Shown here piece after piece: positions 1-46,381 of a stretch of DNA of 46,381 bases (position 1 is its first letter; every line of letters begins with the position of its first letter). Position numbers and translations under genes: made by a program. A model generated the notes under the pieces. It ran no database searches and had not been told where the DNA came from. It saw only the letters and a program-made list of their open reading frames with translations. This DNA comes from Alphaproteobacteria bacterium (GTDB lineage Bacteria; Pseudomonadota; Alphaproteobacteria; Rs-D84): NCBI GenBank assembly GCA_017471445.1, contig JAFUTJ010000008.1, forward strand, positions 1 to 46,381. Direction: 5' to 3'.

Positions 1-105
1 CCACCGTTTTTTTGTGCACGGGTAAAGGAAAATAAAATGGCGGATTTCTGGGGTTTTGTAAAAACAATTTGTGCACCAAAAAAACGGTGGTTTTTTGGTG
101 CACGG
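1..105. mobile_element. Putative invertible translation-start cassette, copy 1 (left site cut by window edge)
   Basis: Core CCACCG at 1-6 and inverted core CGGTGG at 85-90, 78 bp apart; + strand AAAGGA RBS and ATG at 37 reading MADFWGFVKTICAPKKRWFFGAR; near-identical to 22664-22768 and 41339-41443; target gene would lie left of the window. Confidence 0.75.
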
Positions 106-127
106 CTTATTTCCCTGTACGCCATAT

Positions 128-156
128 ATTATACCGCATTCACGCGTTTTTGGCAA
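128..156 (-). promoter_or_regulatory. sigma70-like promoter upstream of cassette copy 1
   Basis: Minus strand TTGCCA-17 bp-TATAAT. Confidence 0.8.
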
Positions 157-168
157 TATGTTTTTTAA

Positions 169-966
169 CTAATTCACCGGCACTAATTTCCCACCCTGCC
201 CACGTGTGGCGTTAATCCAGCACACGCTGCCACCGCGTGGTACGGCCATGGCGTATTTTGTGTGCTTTCCCGCATATATATTTATTCCGTTCATTGCGGT
301 GTCACCAATCCGACACAGTGGCAAACACCGGTCATCGGATGTATGACCATACCCCGCATCACATTCCCATGGGCAATCGCCAACATCCGGTGTGCCGGGA
401 CCGGTATAGTACGCATCTGCCGGTGCATTTGTACATTTTCTTAATATGGTTGAATAATACTGATTTACTACATTTGCCACGTAATAACCGGCAAATGCCC
501 GTCTGTATAAAACCCGTTGAAATTTCGTATAGCCACCCGTACTCAGATTATAATAAAAAGATATGGCGTAAGTATGTGCTTCGTCGTAAATAACATCCCG
601 AACAACATAGCCACAGTCTGTTACGGCGATAATGTTCCGGCCCGCCGTAAAATAATAGGTTTCAACCTCGGCTTTCATTTTACTATAATCTGGGTTGGTA
701 AGGGGGACATATTGCGATATCAGGGTCTTAATTTGTTCTGTGGACATATTTTGTTCGGGACATGCGTGTCGTGCATCATCGCCCGGACAATAATATTTAT
801 CAGAACATTCCGTGCAAGAACCGGTATCATCCAACCAATATCCCTTGGCACACGTTGCGGCATGGGCCGTGCCGACAGCACATGCAACAATCAGTACCCA
901 AATACCCAACGCCAAATCAACCGAATGGCGCGATATAAACGGTCGAATCACAAACAATGCTGTCAT
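169..966 (-). CDS. Secreted Cys-rich variable protein, paralog A (265 aa, own RBS, no cassette)
   Basis: AAAAAGGGAAAAAAG-ATG at 966; signal peptide ending VGTAHA; YCPGDD motif; conserved C-terminus CTNAP...CPWECDAGYGHTSDDRCLPLCRIG...GGKLVPVN. Confidence 0.85.
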   Translation of the reverse strand: MTALFVIRPFISRHSVDLALGIWVLIVACAVGTAHAATCAKGYWLDDTGSCTECSDKYYCPGDDARHACPEQNMSTEQIKTLISQYVPLTNPDYSKMKAEVETYYFTAGRNIIAVTDCGYVVRDVIYDEAHTYAISFYYNLSTGGYTKFQRVLYRRAFAGYYVANVVNQYYSTILRKCTNAPADAYYTGPGTPDVGDCPWECDAGYGHTSDDRCLPLCRIGDTAMNGINIYAGKHTKYAMAVPRGGSVCWINATRGQGGKLVPVN

Positions 967-998
967 CTTTTTTCCCTTTTTATAAATTAAAAAATCCC

Positions 999-1172
999 CC
1001 GCAAAATCGGTGGTTGGAGGTTCATAACTATTACTCATTACAATAGCGTGCTTATTCAATATATTCACAGCCCTCCAACCCCGACGAAACTGGAATTGGA
1101 GAATATTTGCCCAACAACGTGGCCAAACATATGAGTAATGGGTTATGACGCCCAAACACGACTTTACGTGCC
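999..1172 (-). ncRNA. Rod-shaped structured RNA candidate (6S RNA-like or regulatory leader)
   Basis: Minus strand CGTAAAGTCG/CGATTTTGCG and TCATAACCCATTACTCAT/ATGAGTAATAGTTATGA closing stems, central bubble, apical CTCCAATTCC/GGGGTTGGAG stem; own promoter upstream. Confidence 0.5.
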
Positions 1173-1178
1173 ACAAGA

Positions 1179-1207
1179 ATAATACCAAAACCGCACAACA
1201 AAAACAA
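1179..1207 (-). promoter_or_regulatory. sigma70-like promoter for structured RNA / paralog A
   Basis: Minus strand TTGTTT-17 bp-TATTAT with extended -10 TG. Confidence 0.55.
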
Positions 1208-1214
1208 GCGGTAT

Positions 1215-2390
1215 TCAATACATGTTCGCAAAACGTAAACGATTTGACCACAACACAAACGTCGCCGCACAAATAATTGCAATAATGTACGGCATGTGCA
1301 CAAATTCAACAAAACCGAACATATGCGTAATACTGGACAAAATAAACGGTGTTAAAAATTGCGACATATACAGTGCCGCCGACAACAATGGCATTACCGT
1401 TGTCATCGCGCCACGCCCGGCAATTCCGGCGGCGGTGGAAATTATAAACGGAATGCCGATACCATTTGCAAAACCAATCATGGCCGAACCCACAATTGTT
1501 GCAAACCACCCGGGCGATGATACCAAGACACAATAACCACCCAAGAATAACATTGGCGCAACAAACCGAACACTGTTGCCAATTTTATGCTTTATAATTA
1601 CATAAGACATACCGCCAACAAACGCAACTAAATCCATTCCGGCCATTATTGGTGCAATATAATTGTGCGGTATTACGGCATCGTGTGCGGCAATTATTGC
1701 AAAGTTGCATGGGTATATAAAGAACACGAACATCAACAAAAACATCGCAACAATAAATCCATAATATTTGCGCATTGTTGCGCCAATTGATGGATGCGGT
1801 ACATTTACATTATGATCGGTCGGTACCATTCGTTCATTTGGCATAAATGCGGCACACATAATAATACTGACCAATCCAATCAGGTATACCAAGAAACTGG
1901 CGCGCCAACTGATTGTACTTAACACCCCAGACAGCAACGTCGCAACCACACCACCAACTTGGTTCATTGCCGACGACAGGCCCAATAATTTATCATGCCG
2001 GTCACGTGTATAATAGTATGTCAATAACCCCGTTGACATTGGCATAATAATACCAACCCCAATACCAACCAACGCACGCGCAAACAATACCATATATATA
2101 TTATTAAACACACCTGCGGCACACCCACCAACGGTGTACAATATTAACCCAATCATAACCAGTGTACGTGTACGAAACCGTGTACACAACCACGGGAACA
2201 CCATGTTTGCCAACACAATGAACAATGCAGGTACACTGATAATCAATTGTATCAATAATTTTGGCGCATCTGTGAAATATGCCGCAATAACATTCAATGC
2301 CGGCGCAACCGCGGCCCCGGCCATTACCGTCAACAATGATAATGACAATATAGATGCGGTAAATAAATGCTTTCTGTCTTTGTGGTTCAT
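1215..2390 (-). CDS. MFS transporter
   Basis: 391 aa, about 12 hydrophobic segments, MFS-like ARALVGIGVG motif, AAAAGGA RBS. Confidence 0.9.
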   Translation of the reverse strand: MNHKDRKHLFTASILSLSLLTVMAGAAVAPALNVIAAYFTDAPKLLIQLIISVPALFIVLANMVFPWLCTRFRTRTLVMIGLILYTVGGCAAGVFNNIYMVLFARALVGIGVGIIMPMSTGLLTYYYTRDRHDKLLGLSSAMNQVGGVVATLLSGVLSTISWRASFLVYLIGLVSIIMCAAFMPNERMVPTDHNVNVPHPSIGATMRKYYGFIVAMFLLMFVFFIYPCNFAIIAAHDAVIPHNYIAPIMAGMDLVAFVGGMSYVIIKHKIGNSVRFVAPMLFLGGYCVLVSSPGWFATIVGSAMIGFANGIGIPFIISTAAGIAGRGAMTTVMPLLSAALYMSQFLTPFILSSITHMFGFVEFVHMPYIIAIICAATFVLWSNRLRFANMY

Positions 2391-21937: not shown

Positions 21938-22669
21938 CTAATTCACCGGGAACAATTTGCCGCCATCACCGCGTTTTGCACTAATCCAACACGTCGCGCC
22001 ATTACGCGGAACGGCCATGGCGTATTTAGTATGCTTTTCCGCATATATATTTATACCATTCATTGCCGTGTCGCCAATCCGACACAATGGCAAACACCGG
22101 TCGTCGGATGTGTGGCCGAATCCATCATCACATTCCCACGGGCAATCGCCAACATCCGGTGTGCCCGCACCGGTATAGTGCGCATTTGTCGGCGCATTTG
22201 TGCATGGATTTACGTTTTTATAATTCGTGGTACCAGGCTTGTTCAGATTTGATACGTAGTAACCAGTTTGTGCAGCAGAACACAGACCGTTATAGTTTAC
22301 AACCGTATAATCTGATGATTCCATGGAATAGCCTAACACAATATACCTATCCGCGCATGTATCATCTTGCGCCTGACGTACACGCAGACCACACGCCATT
22401 ATTGATGTTGGGCCAACAGAAGCGTATGTTGATGTTTTTTTCAACATATTGTAATCTGAAATATTCGGTATCAAATTCAGAACATCCGACTTGGTCAAAT
22501 TGGTTTCTGGACATTCATAACTTAAATCATCCCCCGGACAGTAATATGACGAGATACAATTTGTACATTCACCATTGTTCATGTATTGCCCCGCGTCGCA
22601 TGTTGCGGCGCGGGCATTGGTTAAAATGCACATGCCAAACATCACACCCCATGCACAAAAAAACCACCG
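21938..22669 (-). CDS. Secreted Cys-rich variable protein, paralog B; start codon supplied only by inverted cassette (259 aa when ON)
   Basis: Fixed part begins RWFFCAWGVMFGMCILTNARA-ATC; YCPGDD; conserved C-terminus; no RBS+start facing the gene in this orientation. Confidence 0.85.
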   Translation of the reverse strand, partial: RWFFCAWGVMFGMCILTNARAATCDAGQYMNNGECTNCISSYYCPGDDLSYECPETNLTKSDVLNLIPNISDYNMLKKTSTYASVGPTSIMACGLRVRQAQDDTCADRYIVLGYSMESSDYTVVNYNGLCSAAQTGYYVSNLNKPGTTNYKNVNPCTNAPTNAHYTGAGTPDVGDCPWECDDGFGHTSDDRCLPLCRIGDTAMNGINIYAEKHTKYAMAVPRNGATCWISAKRGDGGKLFPVN

Positions 22670-22768
22670 TTTTTTTGTGCACAGGTAAAGGAAAATAAAA
22701 TGGCGGATTTCTGGGGTTTTGTAAAAACAATTTGTGCACCAAAAAAACGGTGGTTTTTTGGTGCACGG
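22652..22768. mobile_element. Putative invertible translation-start cassette, copy 2 (OFF orientation)
   Basis: Left site TGCACAAAAAAA-CCACCG-TTTTTTTGTGCA (perfect 12-6-12 palindrome, 22652-22681); right site 22734-22766 with inverted core; RBS+ATG at 22700 on + strand. Confidence 0.8.
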
Positions 22769-22790
22769 CTTATTTCCCTGTACGCCATAT

Positions 22791-22819
22791 ATCATACCGC
22801 ATTCACGCATTTTTGACAA
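22791..22819 (-). promoter_or_regulatory. sigma70-like promoter upstream of cassette copy 2
   Basis: Minus strand TTGTCA-17 bp-TATGAT. Confidence 0.8.
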
Positions 22820-22857
22820 TATGTTTTTTGATAAAAAAACATTACATAAACATATTG

Positions 22858-40573: not shown

Positions 40574-41344
40574 CTAATTCACCGGAACTAATTTCCCGCC
40601 GATGTCGCGTATGGCACTAATCCAACACATACCATCGCCGCGTGGAACGGCCATGGCATATTTTGTGTGCTTTTCGGCGTATATATTTATACCGTTCATT
40701 GCGGTTTCACCAATCCGGCACAGCGGCAAACACCGGTCGTCGGATGTGTGACCGAATCCATCATCGCATTCCCACGGGCAATCGTTCGCGTTCTTAATCG
40801 TACCATCCGGGCTGTCCGGTGTGCCGGGACCGGTATAGTGCGCGTTTGCCGGTGCGTTGGTGCATGGCTTTACGCCATTGTACCAAACCTTATACGTGGT
40901 ACCCATATATGGCGACAGATAATAACCGGTTCCCGCCGCATAATAGTGTGTGCATTTAACGGGGTATTCTTGGCTGGTTGGGTCGTATGCAACCTCTGAC
41001 AGGCAACTATAATTCTTAGTATAAAAATATGCACTGCGATGACAACAGGTTATCCTGTCACGCTCGTAATACGTTGTGCCATTATATACAAATTGCGTCC
41101 GCCAAGAATTGATCCATACTTCGCCGACTGTAAAAGTATCATCAAAAAACTGTTCATATTTTCCCGCCCATTTATCTTCGGGACATTCGTATTGTGCGTC
41201 ATCGCCCGGACAATAAGATGTTTTGCCGCAATATGTACATTCGTTTTTAGAATTCAGATAAAAATTTGCCGGACAATTTGCGGCATGGGCATTGGTTAAA
41301 ATGCACATGCCAAACACCACACCCCGTGCACCAAAAAACCACCG
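40574..41344 (-). CDS. Secreted Cys-rich variable protein, paralog C; start codon supplied only by inverted cassette (272 aa when ON)
   Basis: Fixed part begins RWFFGARGVVFGMCILTNAHA-ANC; YCPGDD; conserved C-terminus. Confidence 0.85.
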   Translation of the reverse strand, partial: RWFFGARGVVFGMCILTNAHAANCPANFYLNSKNECTYCGKTSYCPGDDAQYECPEDKWAGKYEQFFDDTFTVGEVWINSWRTQFVYNGTTYYERDRITCCHRSAYFYTKNYSCLSEVAYDPTSQEYPVKCTHYYAAGTGYYLSPYMGTTYKVWYNGVKPCTNAPANAHYTGPGTPDSPDGTIKNANDCPWECDDGFGHTSDDRCLPLCRIGETAMNGINIYAEKHTKYAMAVPRGDGMCWISAIRDIGGKLVPVN

Positions 41345-41443
41345 TTTTTTTGTGCACGGATAAAGGAAAATAAAATGGCGGATTTCTGGGGTTTTGTAAA
41401 AACAATTTGTGCACCAAAAAAACGGTGGTTTTTTGGTGCACGG
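41324..41443. mobile_element. Putative invertible translation-start cassette, copy 3 (OFF orientation)
   Basis: Perfect 29-bp inverted repeat 41324-41352 / 41415-41443; RBS AAAGGA and ATG at 41375 on + strand. Confidence 0.82.
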
Positions 41444-41465
41444 CTTATTTCCCTGTACGCCACGC

Positions 41466-41494
41466 ATTGTAACATGTTCGGCGATTTTTTTCAA
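41466..41494 (-). promoter_or_regulatory. sigma70-like promoter upstream of cassette copy 3
   Basis: Minus strand TTGAAA-17 bp-TACAAT with extended -10 TG. Confidence 0.8.
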
Positions 41495-41543
41495 TATGTT
41501 TTTTATTAATTTTAATTTGATTTATTATTTCATAAAACTGTGC

Positions 41544-45627: not shown

Positions 45628-46381
45628 CTAATTCACCGGGACCAATTTACCGCCCTGCCCTTTTTCTGCACTAATCCAACACGTTGCGCCACCGCGTGGT
45701 ACGGCCATGGCGTATTTGGTATGCTTTTCGGCGTATATGTTTATACCGTTCATTGCGGTTTCACCAATCCGGCATAACGGTAAACACCGGTCGTCGGATG
45801 TATGACCGAATCCATCATCACATTCCCATTCACAATTTGGTGTGCCATCGGTTGTATTTGCGGCGGTATAGTGTGCATTTGCCGGCGCGTTTGTGCATGG
45901 CATGCAATCTGATGCCGCGGCGGCGGTGTCCGTTGCCGTATATGTGCCCGCCGGGCATGCGGTATGTTCAACATCATTTGCACCAACATAAAAACCGAAA
46001 CCTGCCGCAATACAAATATCATGCGCCAATAACAGGTTTAAGTTCGCAAACTGAATATTCCAAGATGTTGGTTGTTTGCCCGTTACATTTGCATAATAGC
46101 CCGCATCACACTTGGTTAAATTATATTTGTACTGGCAATTGGTACCGCCAATATATTCCCCATTTAACACACCACAGTTATATGTTGTTATTCCGTGCGC
46201 AATCGGGACATCTGCAAATGTGGCACGGCAATATTTTGCCGCGGTAATAACATCAATGCTTGTATTAATGTAATATTGCTGAAAATAAATATAGTGTGGA
46301 TTAGATGTTGTAACAATTGGACATAGGTGCCGCGTATCATCGCCAGGGCAATAAAAATTGTAATTCTGTGATATATCGGCC
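45628..46381 (-). CDS. Secreted Cys-rich variable protein, paralog D (5' end beyond window)
   Basis: Frame stays open to the edge (...ADISQNYNFYCPGDDTRHLCP...); extra CPAGTY...C repeat; conserved C-terminus. Confidence 0.85.
   Translation of the reverse strand, partial: ADISQNYNFYCPGDDTRHLCPIVTTSNPHYIYFQQYYINTSIDVITAAKYCRATFADVPIAHGITTYNCGVLNGEYIGGTNCQYKYNLTKCDAGYYANVTGKQPTSWNIQFANLNLLLAHDICIAAGFGFYVGANDVEHTACPAGTYTATDTAAAASDCMPCTNAPANAHYTAANTTDGTPNCEWECDDGFGHTSDDRCLPLCRIGETAMNGINIYAEKHTKYAMAVPRGGATCWISAEKGQGGKLVPVN

Follow-up and report, generated by a model that had tools for sequence, protein, structure and literature searches.

Contig C19 of genome G000, a 0.91-Mb gut alphaproteobacterial metagenome-assembled genome (MAG) of 23 contigs and 88% completeness, begins exactly on the first base of the hexamer CCACCG, the centre of one of two inverted sites in a short cassette that lies upstream of genes for exported, Cys-rich proteins. 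This raises the question of what the cassette is, and of why an assembled contig should start inside it, at a position that an earlier note on this DNA had predicted to be a crossover core. The stretch analysed here, C19:1-46381 (46,381 nucleotides of a contig of 185,066 nt), is referred to as the window. We read positions 1-156 as one copy of a multi-copy DNA inversion switch of which the assembler has kept only the two-thirds on the promoter side, and give this reading a probability of about 0.8. The features of this copy are as follows:

1-19, no strand: inner half of the left site, consisting of the centre CCACCG (1-6) and the inner arm T7-GTGCAC (7-19); the contig end cuts off the outer arm
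20-70, plus strand: interior of the putative invertible segment, with AAGGA at 25-29, ATG at 37-39 and the codons MADFWGFVKTI
37-84, plus strand: ATG up to the first base of the right core, 48 nt or 16 codons, of the same length among copies
71-103, no strand: right recombination site in full, GTGCACC-A7-CGGTGG-T6-GGTGCAC, with its core at 85-90 and in inverted orientation to the left site
128-156, minus strand: fixed outside promoter TTGCCA-17-TATAAT, 11 of 12 consensus positions, directed leftwards through the cassette

Direct reading of the sequence agrees with the earlier note that a third copy of the cassette starts here at its core, and likewise that it is followed by a right site and a promoter 12 bp from the stop of paralog A (stop codon at 169-171, with positions 157-168 between it and the -35 hexamer). 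Window positions 1-166 recur at 22664-22829 (98% identical) and at 41339-41504 (90%), complete left-type sites elsewhere in the genome read GTGCAC(A/C)A6-CCACCG-T6-7(G)GTGCAC, and the segment of the 1-156 copy is identical to the C11 and C16:13207 segments. Its promoter is directed left, out of the contig, and its interior codons run away from the missing gene, which places this copy in the OFF orientation. In the 16 other OFF copies the signal-peptide flank of the paralog, where visible, lies beyond the site at the end with the ribosome-binding site (RBS), and the gene of the 1-156 copy is beyond the contig end.

The cassette is a genome-wide element. The site centre A4-CCACCG-T4 is present in 42 exact copies, and a BLAST search found 21 copies of the type-1 interior, 16 in complete cassettes and 5 in cassettes cut by contig ends; together with two cassettes of a second type (described below) they are spread over 15 contigs and have one inverted-repeat type in common. 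Each type-1 segment is 83-84 bp long, near-identical among copies and bounded by inverted 32-bp sites, in which palindromic arms (GTGCAC-A7 / T7-GTGCAC) surround the asymmetric centre CCACCG; the segment carries an RBS, an ATG and 16 codons. The type-1 promoter is fixed outside the segment, reads through it and is consensus-like, matching at 10-11 of 12 positions in the window copies. Both orientations occur within the one assembly. Four of the 21 copies (C1:43394, C2:1847, C15:3360 and C15:20723) are ON, with the promoter flank upstream of the ATG and the gene flank downstream, and the other 17, all three window copies included, are OFF, with the same two flanks and the segment alone reversed. 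The ON segment at C15:20723 and the OFF segment at C20:19534 are identical at 78/78 nt.

The reading frame is conserved in both orientations. In the ON copies it runs M-A-D-F-W-G-F-(V/I)-K, continues across the site as K-K-R-W-F-F and then through a hydrophobic stretch to A-x-A and a Cys-rich protein; the ON gene at C2:1847 encodes 324 aa. When the OFF copies were inverted in silico at their cores, open in-frame fusions of 112-335 aa were obtained in 13 of the 13 evaluable copies, a test that left out three promoter-side ends without a gene (the 1-156 copy among them) and the copy on C18. From the ATG to the downstream core, all 18 measurable cassettes span 48 nt, even though interiors of 62 and 63 nt and A-runs of 6 and 7 both occur: on the coding side these length differences compensate one another, and the non-coding side is free in length, the two cores being 83 bp apart in 3 copies and 84 bp apart in 12. 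Such conservation of frame and length is what selection on the inverted state would be expected to produce, and as judged from sequence it seems hard to reconcile with frozen relics.

The switch would work as follows. A fixed promoter of the sigma-70 type would transcribe through the 83-84-bp segment between the two inverted sites. In the ON orientation, the ATG of the segment would be in frame across the site, which would be translated as K-K-R-W-F-F and form the charged beginning of a signal peptide. With the segment in the OFF orientation, the gene would be left without an RBS or a start codon. In this orientation only, a consensus scan marked the first site on the transcript as a hairpin with a T-rich run behind it, which might terminate transcription; a contribution of such a terminator to the OFF state is possible but weak. 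One serine invertase of the Mpi family would act in trans on all copies, with strand exchange at the central AC dinucleotide.

The position at which the contig starts is explained by the assembly. All 46 contig ends of the genome were compared for common inward prefixes, and 10 pairs of ends were found to have one, of exactly 141 nt in 10/10, as is characteristic of de Bruijn assembly at k = 141. The left end of C19 and the right end of C16 are identical over 141 nt and part at base 142 (A vs G), and the left end of C11 starts 15 nt further out, is identical to the other two up to its own base 141 and differs at its own base 142. Three promoter-side paths thus run together into a single cassette path, at which the assembler stops; of the causes proposed in the earlier note, repeat collapse is the one that holds. 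Base 1 falls on CCACCG because the nearest difference between repeat copies, at base 142, lies k = 141 away, and the contig start on the first base of CCACCG is an assembly by-product and not a recombination footprint. The k of the assembler is the first thing to compare when a contig starts on a suggestive motif; here the claimed crossover signature disappears.

The same k-mer logic implies that the 15 nt to the left of base 1 should be CCGTGCACAAAAAAA, which gives a full left site with the A7 variant of the arm, as on the gene side of the cassette at C2:38580. A further paralogue to the left, as had been proposed, is likely, and the identity of its gene is not recoverable from the assembly; short linking contigs are missing from the genome bin. 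A join of the left end of C19 to the gene-side orphan ends of C12 or C13 was considered and is ruled out, as the inner arm differs by one base. At the other edge of the window, base 46381 is an arbitrary cut within C19, unlike base 1, which is a true contig end, and the proximity of this edge to the 5' end of paralog D, to which the earlier note had drawn attention, is an outcome of that cut, the gene and its cassette continuing to C19:46623. Elsewhere in the genome, the right ends of C11 and C23 lie in a (CT)n/(GA)n dinucleotide run, another assembly break caused by a repeat.

Four explanations other than an active, serine invertase-driven switch cut off by the assembler have to be weighed. 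The first two concern the break and the repeat itself. That the break at base 1 arose from two orientations or exchange products in the population, and so marks the crossover point, could be argued from the coincidence of base 1 with the first base of CCACCG, from the end of C16 at the mirror position and from the occurrence of both orientations within the assembly. We consider it very improbable: the C16 end is the same 141-mer as that of C19 and no independent case, the break lies at the position of a single-nucleotide difference minus the k that recurs at all 10 shared ends, and a graph of mixed orientations would branch at the boundary of the interior and not at the core, since both palindromic arms read the same after inversion. 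The ends of the remaining cassette-linked contigs lie at four other positions, namely two bases inside the opposite core (C12 and C13, again through a common 141-mer), in the cassette interior (C18), in the promoter flank (right end of C19) and at -15 (C11); the right end of C16 alone ends at the same base as C19. It is scarcely credible that the repeat is a miniature inverted-repeat transposable element inserted in either orientation. It is indeed short, has terminal inverted repeats and exists in many copies, but every copy occupies the equivalent position, with homologous flanks on the promoter and the signal-peptide side, target-site duplications were not seen, an in-frame start is provided by the element, and two copies carry a promoter instead and lie between divergent genes. 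An improbable but less remote explanation is that the cassettes are frozen relics of old inversions, or of gene conversion between copies, in which switching has ended. The read data gave no sign of heterogeneity, in k = 31 contigs only, and the cassette at C21:26885-26990, with a degenerate right core, looks locked ON. Against this stand the exactness of the centre in 42 site copies, the complete identity of one ON and one OFF segment, and the frame compatibility of all 13 OFF copies with their compensating indels, which is explained by selection on the inverted state only.

Which enzyme would turn such a switch leads to the last rival. The genome has eight to nine serine-recombinase matches, among them four intact small serine recombinases (~200-240 aa) that match NCBIfam NF009949, the master DNA invertase Mpi family; the protein encoded at C6:63411-64136 reaches 298.5 bits, above the cut-off of 272, and the other three reach 224-266, just short of it. 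Two further members of the family, at C19:100766-101375 and C6:38330-38773, are broken, one being frameshifted and one lacking its N-terminus, which brings the family to six. Its tyrosine recombinases are an XerC-like and an XerD-like protein and a P4-type integrase (C19:85045-86277), and a search of the genome for the IS110/Piv family returned no match. The exact two-site pattern has no match among 185,579 species genomes outside its own genome and was otherwise found in only two metagenome contigs (L055 and L056), with an A6-CCACCG-T6 centre and different outer arms. In L055 a gene for an Mpi-like serine recombinase starts 33 nt from the site, with a lipoprotein gene on the other side, and in L056 a tentative fragment of a recombinase open reading frame (G-F-A-R-V-S) stands beside the inverton, where the locus ends, with an exported-protein gene opposite. 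The L055 protein is 57% identical over 122 aa to the C6 paralogue and 43-46% identical to the three other intact paralogues. A second class of inverted repeats lies directly downstream of the Mpi paralogue on C3 and has the centre AACC-AC-GGTT, with the central AC in a perfect palindrome. A C6-type orthologue of at least 66% identity occurs in 8 of 24 genus genomes, and the loose pattern AAACCNNSGTTT, gap 60-90, AAACSNNGGTTT in 3 of these 8, in 0 of the 16 others in the genus and in 0 of 16 genomes of other genera, an association in favour of the C6 paralogue that is to be read with the reservation that the 66% threshold was set after the data were seen and that related genomes are not independent. 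The three genomes with the loose pattern are G006, with eight cassettes centred on CCAACG, and G017 and G022, with one each centred on CCACCG. Taken together, these sequence comparisons suggest that the catalyst is probably one of the Mpi-family serine invertases of the genome, with C6:63411-64136 as the best candidate.

A real switch driven instead by a tyrosine recombinase, either XerC/XerD in a moonlighting role or the P4-type integrase, with exchange at the edges of the CCACCG spacer as in mycoplasma Xer-like or fim/RecV systems, is unlikely, though less so than the alternatives above. The site fits the classical tyrosine-recombinase layout, in which inverted arms of 13 bp enclose an asymmetric spacer of 6 bp, the genome has three genes for such enzymes, and tyrosine recombinases tolerate short intervening DNA. 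The site can equally be described as 14-bp arms and a 4-bp centre, and judged on sequence the core is likely better seen as a non-palindromic C-AC-C between 14-bp perfect arms, with a 2-bp exchange at AC; Hin and Gin sites have an A-tract and then CC next to their central 2-bp crossover. Beyond XerC, XerD and the one phage-type integrase, the genome, at 88% completeness, has no dedicated tyrosine recombinase. In two unrelated metagenome contigs this site centre adjoins serine recombinase genes (one clear, one tentative) and not tyrosine recombinase genes, six Mpi-family genes, intact and broken, are present in G000, and the repeats beside the C3 paralogue have a related centre.

Several observations limit the case for an active switch served by a C6-type invertase. 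Both orientations were seen only across different loci of one assembly. In four runs of one study that contain this DNA, two of which may stem from the source sample, k = 31 contigs on window positions 1-1500 had no joints and none spanned the cassette; such contigs cannot link unique flank to orientation across a 32-bp site, and depth at the repeat pools all copies and organisms and is uninformative as to both orientation and copy number. This outcome weighs on neither side of the question of flipping. The signal-peptide reading of the ON leader, 36-40 residues long, comes from inspection of the sequence only and is to be taken as putative. No invertase gene lies beside any CCACCG cassette in the genome, a dedicated recombinase could be missing from an assembly of this completeness, and a loop of ~84 bp is very short for synapsis, with no accessory factor identified. 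By the strict pattern, five of the eight relatives with a C6-type orthologue have no site pair. No recombination sites were found beside the C6-type invertase genes of five relatives and this genome, apart from one near-site inside the codons of the gene. This near-site consists of the E-N-Q-R-F codons near the start of C6-type invertase genes, which read AAAACCAGCGTTTT (L057 ~2165, L061 ~1547), one mismatch from the site centre, and the likeness is probably a coincidence.

Contig C3 has two pairs of inverted repeats, at C3:114551-114695 and 116459-116615, with 18-nt arms 109 and 121 nt apart and the centres AACC-GT-GGTT and AAACC-GA-GGTT, beside the Mpi paralogue at C3:113946-114563; they may represent a distinct class of invertons, or else a region of shufflon type, that has an invertase of its own.

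The cassette variants bear on how the switch may have arisen. The two type-2 cassettes, C10:3497-3627 and C18:18086-18210, have the same 32-bp sites at 95-bp spacing, contain TTGGAA-17-TAAAAT and lack a start codon. The C10 cassette lies between two divergent exported-protein genes, each with its own RBS and ATG, and its promoter segment would toggle between them. The variant at C21:26885-26990 is a start cassette in the ON orientation with a different interior and the degenerate second core CGGTCA, and is apparently locked ON. Core-to-core distances are 83-84 bp in type 1, 85 in the locked C21 copy and 95 in type 2, and elsewhere 84-86 bp in three sister species and 82-83 bp in the two metagenome contigs. 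All these spacings correspond to ~8 or ~9 helical turns and none is near 8.5, with the limit that type-1 copies are not independent; they fit the looping of a very short segment.

The motif AAAATGGCGGA(A/T)(A/T)T stands at the centre of all these cassettes. In the type-2 cassettes of G000 and the eight cassettes of G006, it forms the 17-nt spacer of a TTGnAA-17-TAnnnT promoter, and in type 1 the hexamers flanking it are degenerate and its ATG is the start codon. A possible reading is that type 1 is an invertible promoter turned into an invertible translation start; the alternative for the central motif is a site for an accessory protein. Put together, an Mpi-family invertase would flip segments of 83-86 bp and 95 bp, the site would double as the signal-peptide codons K-K-R-W-F-F, translation start and export would be switched and not transcription, and the cassette would be an exapted invertible promoter. 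This full account is a tentative one, which we would not back at even odds. If it is true, 24 switches and 4-6 invertase genes in 0.91 Mb would make this one of the densest phase-variation repertoires known, with segments among the shortest natural invertible segments.

Relatives have other arrangements. Members of the protein family with 30-39% identity were found in gut Alphaproteobacteria MAGs, two of them labelled Candidatus Enterousia sp. Among seven further family loci in relatives, six have starts of the ordinary, fixed kind, the start of one (L054) is outside the locus, and no inverted repeats were found in these seven loci at the thresholds used. The sister species G006 (L065, L067, L069, L071) has its eight cassettes with sites of the form CTATAAAACAAAC-CAAC-GTTTGTTTTATAG, 86 bp centre to centre, and with a promoter-like interior. 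The genes behind them have an RBS and ATG of their own, and in all four loci that were viewed the promoter is directed away from the gene. The L055 (401-496) and L056 (401-497) invertons have sites of the type TATCA-A6-CCACCG-T6-GATA. A wild-mouse Alphaproteobacteria MAG has a different switch before three paralogues of the same family (L042 1399-1485, L045 37-123 and L046 1342-1428), with 19-nt inverted repeats ending in TAGGCATA, a 49-nt interior and the start codon inside the repeat; its interior has CGGATTTCTGC in common with the G000 cassettes. BLAST of a 232-nt module against 60 relatives matched only a 24-nt motif. This motif of ~24 nt, AAAAATGGCGGATTTCTGCGGTTTTT, often after GCCCTATT, occurs in L015, L016, L019, L020, L022-L024 and L027, near position 1500, and is present in one or two solitary copies per genome in genus relatives, outside any recognisable cassette; an Rfam search of six loci with it gave no match.

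Several known systems resemble parts of this switch. The cwpV switch of Clostridioides difficile also has a promoter fixed outside an invertible segment that precedes a surface-protein gene, and its OFF state may involve a terminator; it differs in that RecV is a tyrosine recombinase, the segment lies in an untranslated leader without a start codon, and there is one locus against 21 here. The inverted repeat of Bacteroides is not known to be related in sequence to the site described here.

A close likeness is to Mpi of Bacteroides fragilis, a master invertase that acts on dispersed invertible promoters, each locus switching independently (PMC10403206). The NF009949 family, many short dispersed regions with one inverted-repeat type, the gut host and the position of the regions before genes for surface structures (there) or exported proteins (here) are common to both. 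Unlike in Mpi invertons, the type-1 payload is an RBS, a start codon and the first 16 codons and not a promoter, an invertible promoter being present, by sequence, in the two type-2 copies only, and the 21 type-1 promoters lying outside the segment. Further differences are the site within signal-peptide coding sequence, the 83-84-bp segment, the 0.9-Mb alphaproteobacterial host and the four intact paralogues. The mpl genes of Mycoplasma penetrans, 38 in number and each with an adjacent invertible promoter (PMC2268961), are likewise a large surface-protein family in a reduced genome, with dispersed clusters and a private short switch for each gene; there, however, the promoter inverts and Xer-like tyrosine recombinases are the candidates, and here the promoter is fixed, the translation start would invert and a serine invertase is the candidate. 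In the vsa system of M. pulmonis the site also lies within the coding region, and inversion joins a 5' end, comprising promoter, RBS and first codons, to silent bodies (PMC2268961), but with large inversions at a single expression site, whereas here each gene has its own promoter and 5' cassette. With Hin, Gin and Cin the candidate system has in common small serine recombinases and imperfectly palindromic inverted sites (PMC3798978, PMC4817059), the site being 32 bp here and 26 bp there; the Hin segment of ~1 kb with its required Fis-bound enhancer near one site contrasts with segments of 83-95 bp that have no adjacent recombinase gene or enhancer.

The cassettes also resemble partial intergenic invertons, in which one repeat lies inside a gene and the other outside (Chanin et al., 10.1101/2023.03.11.532203; Milman et al., PMC9881135), although those are mostly long and shufflon-like and swap parts of genes. 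The searched passages of Chanin et al. do not mention start codons, signal peptides or ribosome binding, and those of Milman et al. mention a start codon once, in the methods, and neither a signal peptide nor a ribosome; a literature search that included passages from the main text of both papers found no description of an inverton carrying the RBS and start codon of a signal peptide. The logic of the switch is that of the Mpi-controlled Bacteroides invertons and of the per-gene switches of mpl, and the differences lie in the payload, the translated site, the size and the host.

A host-associated bacterium with a minimal genome appears to devote about two dozen independent switches to exported Cys-rich proteins, by a design in which the translation start is moved instead of the promoter and the recombination site is embedded in the signal peptide. 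This would explain why, as annotated in MAGs, many genes of the family look as if they had no start codon or signal peptide. If confirmed, searches for invertons should include very short segments that partly overlap genes, and genes that apparently have no start, and a compact natural 84-bp ON/OFF switch of translation would be on offer.

The other members of the family in and next to the window, with their cassettes and promoters, are:

169-966, minus strand: paralog A, exported and Cys-rich, with a fixed ATG and signal peptide of its own and no cassette
21938-22639, minus strand: body of paralog B, without a start codon in the assembled (OFF) state
22649-22768, no strand: cassette B, OFF, two inverted sites and interior
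22791-22819, minus strand: promoter of cassette B, TTGTCA-17-TATGAT, 10 of 12 consensus positions
40574-41320, minus strand: body of paralog C, OFF
41324-41443, no strand: cassette C, OFF, 29-nt arms 100% complementary, 62 nt between them
41466-41494, minus strand: promoter of cassette C, TTGAAA-17-TACAAT, 10 of 12 positions, with TG upstream of the -10 hexamer
45628-46381, minus strand: 3' part of paralog D, the gene being interrupted by the window cut
C19:46504-46623, outside the window: cassette of paralog D, OFF

Two gene families lie behind the switches, and a Pfam search of the four paralogues gave no family, both switched gene families being without a match. Paralog A is a member of the switched family with a private fixed start, so that the family mixes constitutive and switchable members.

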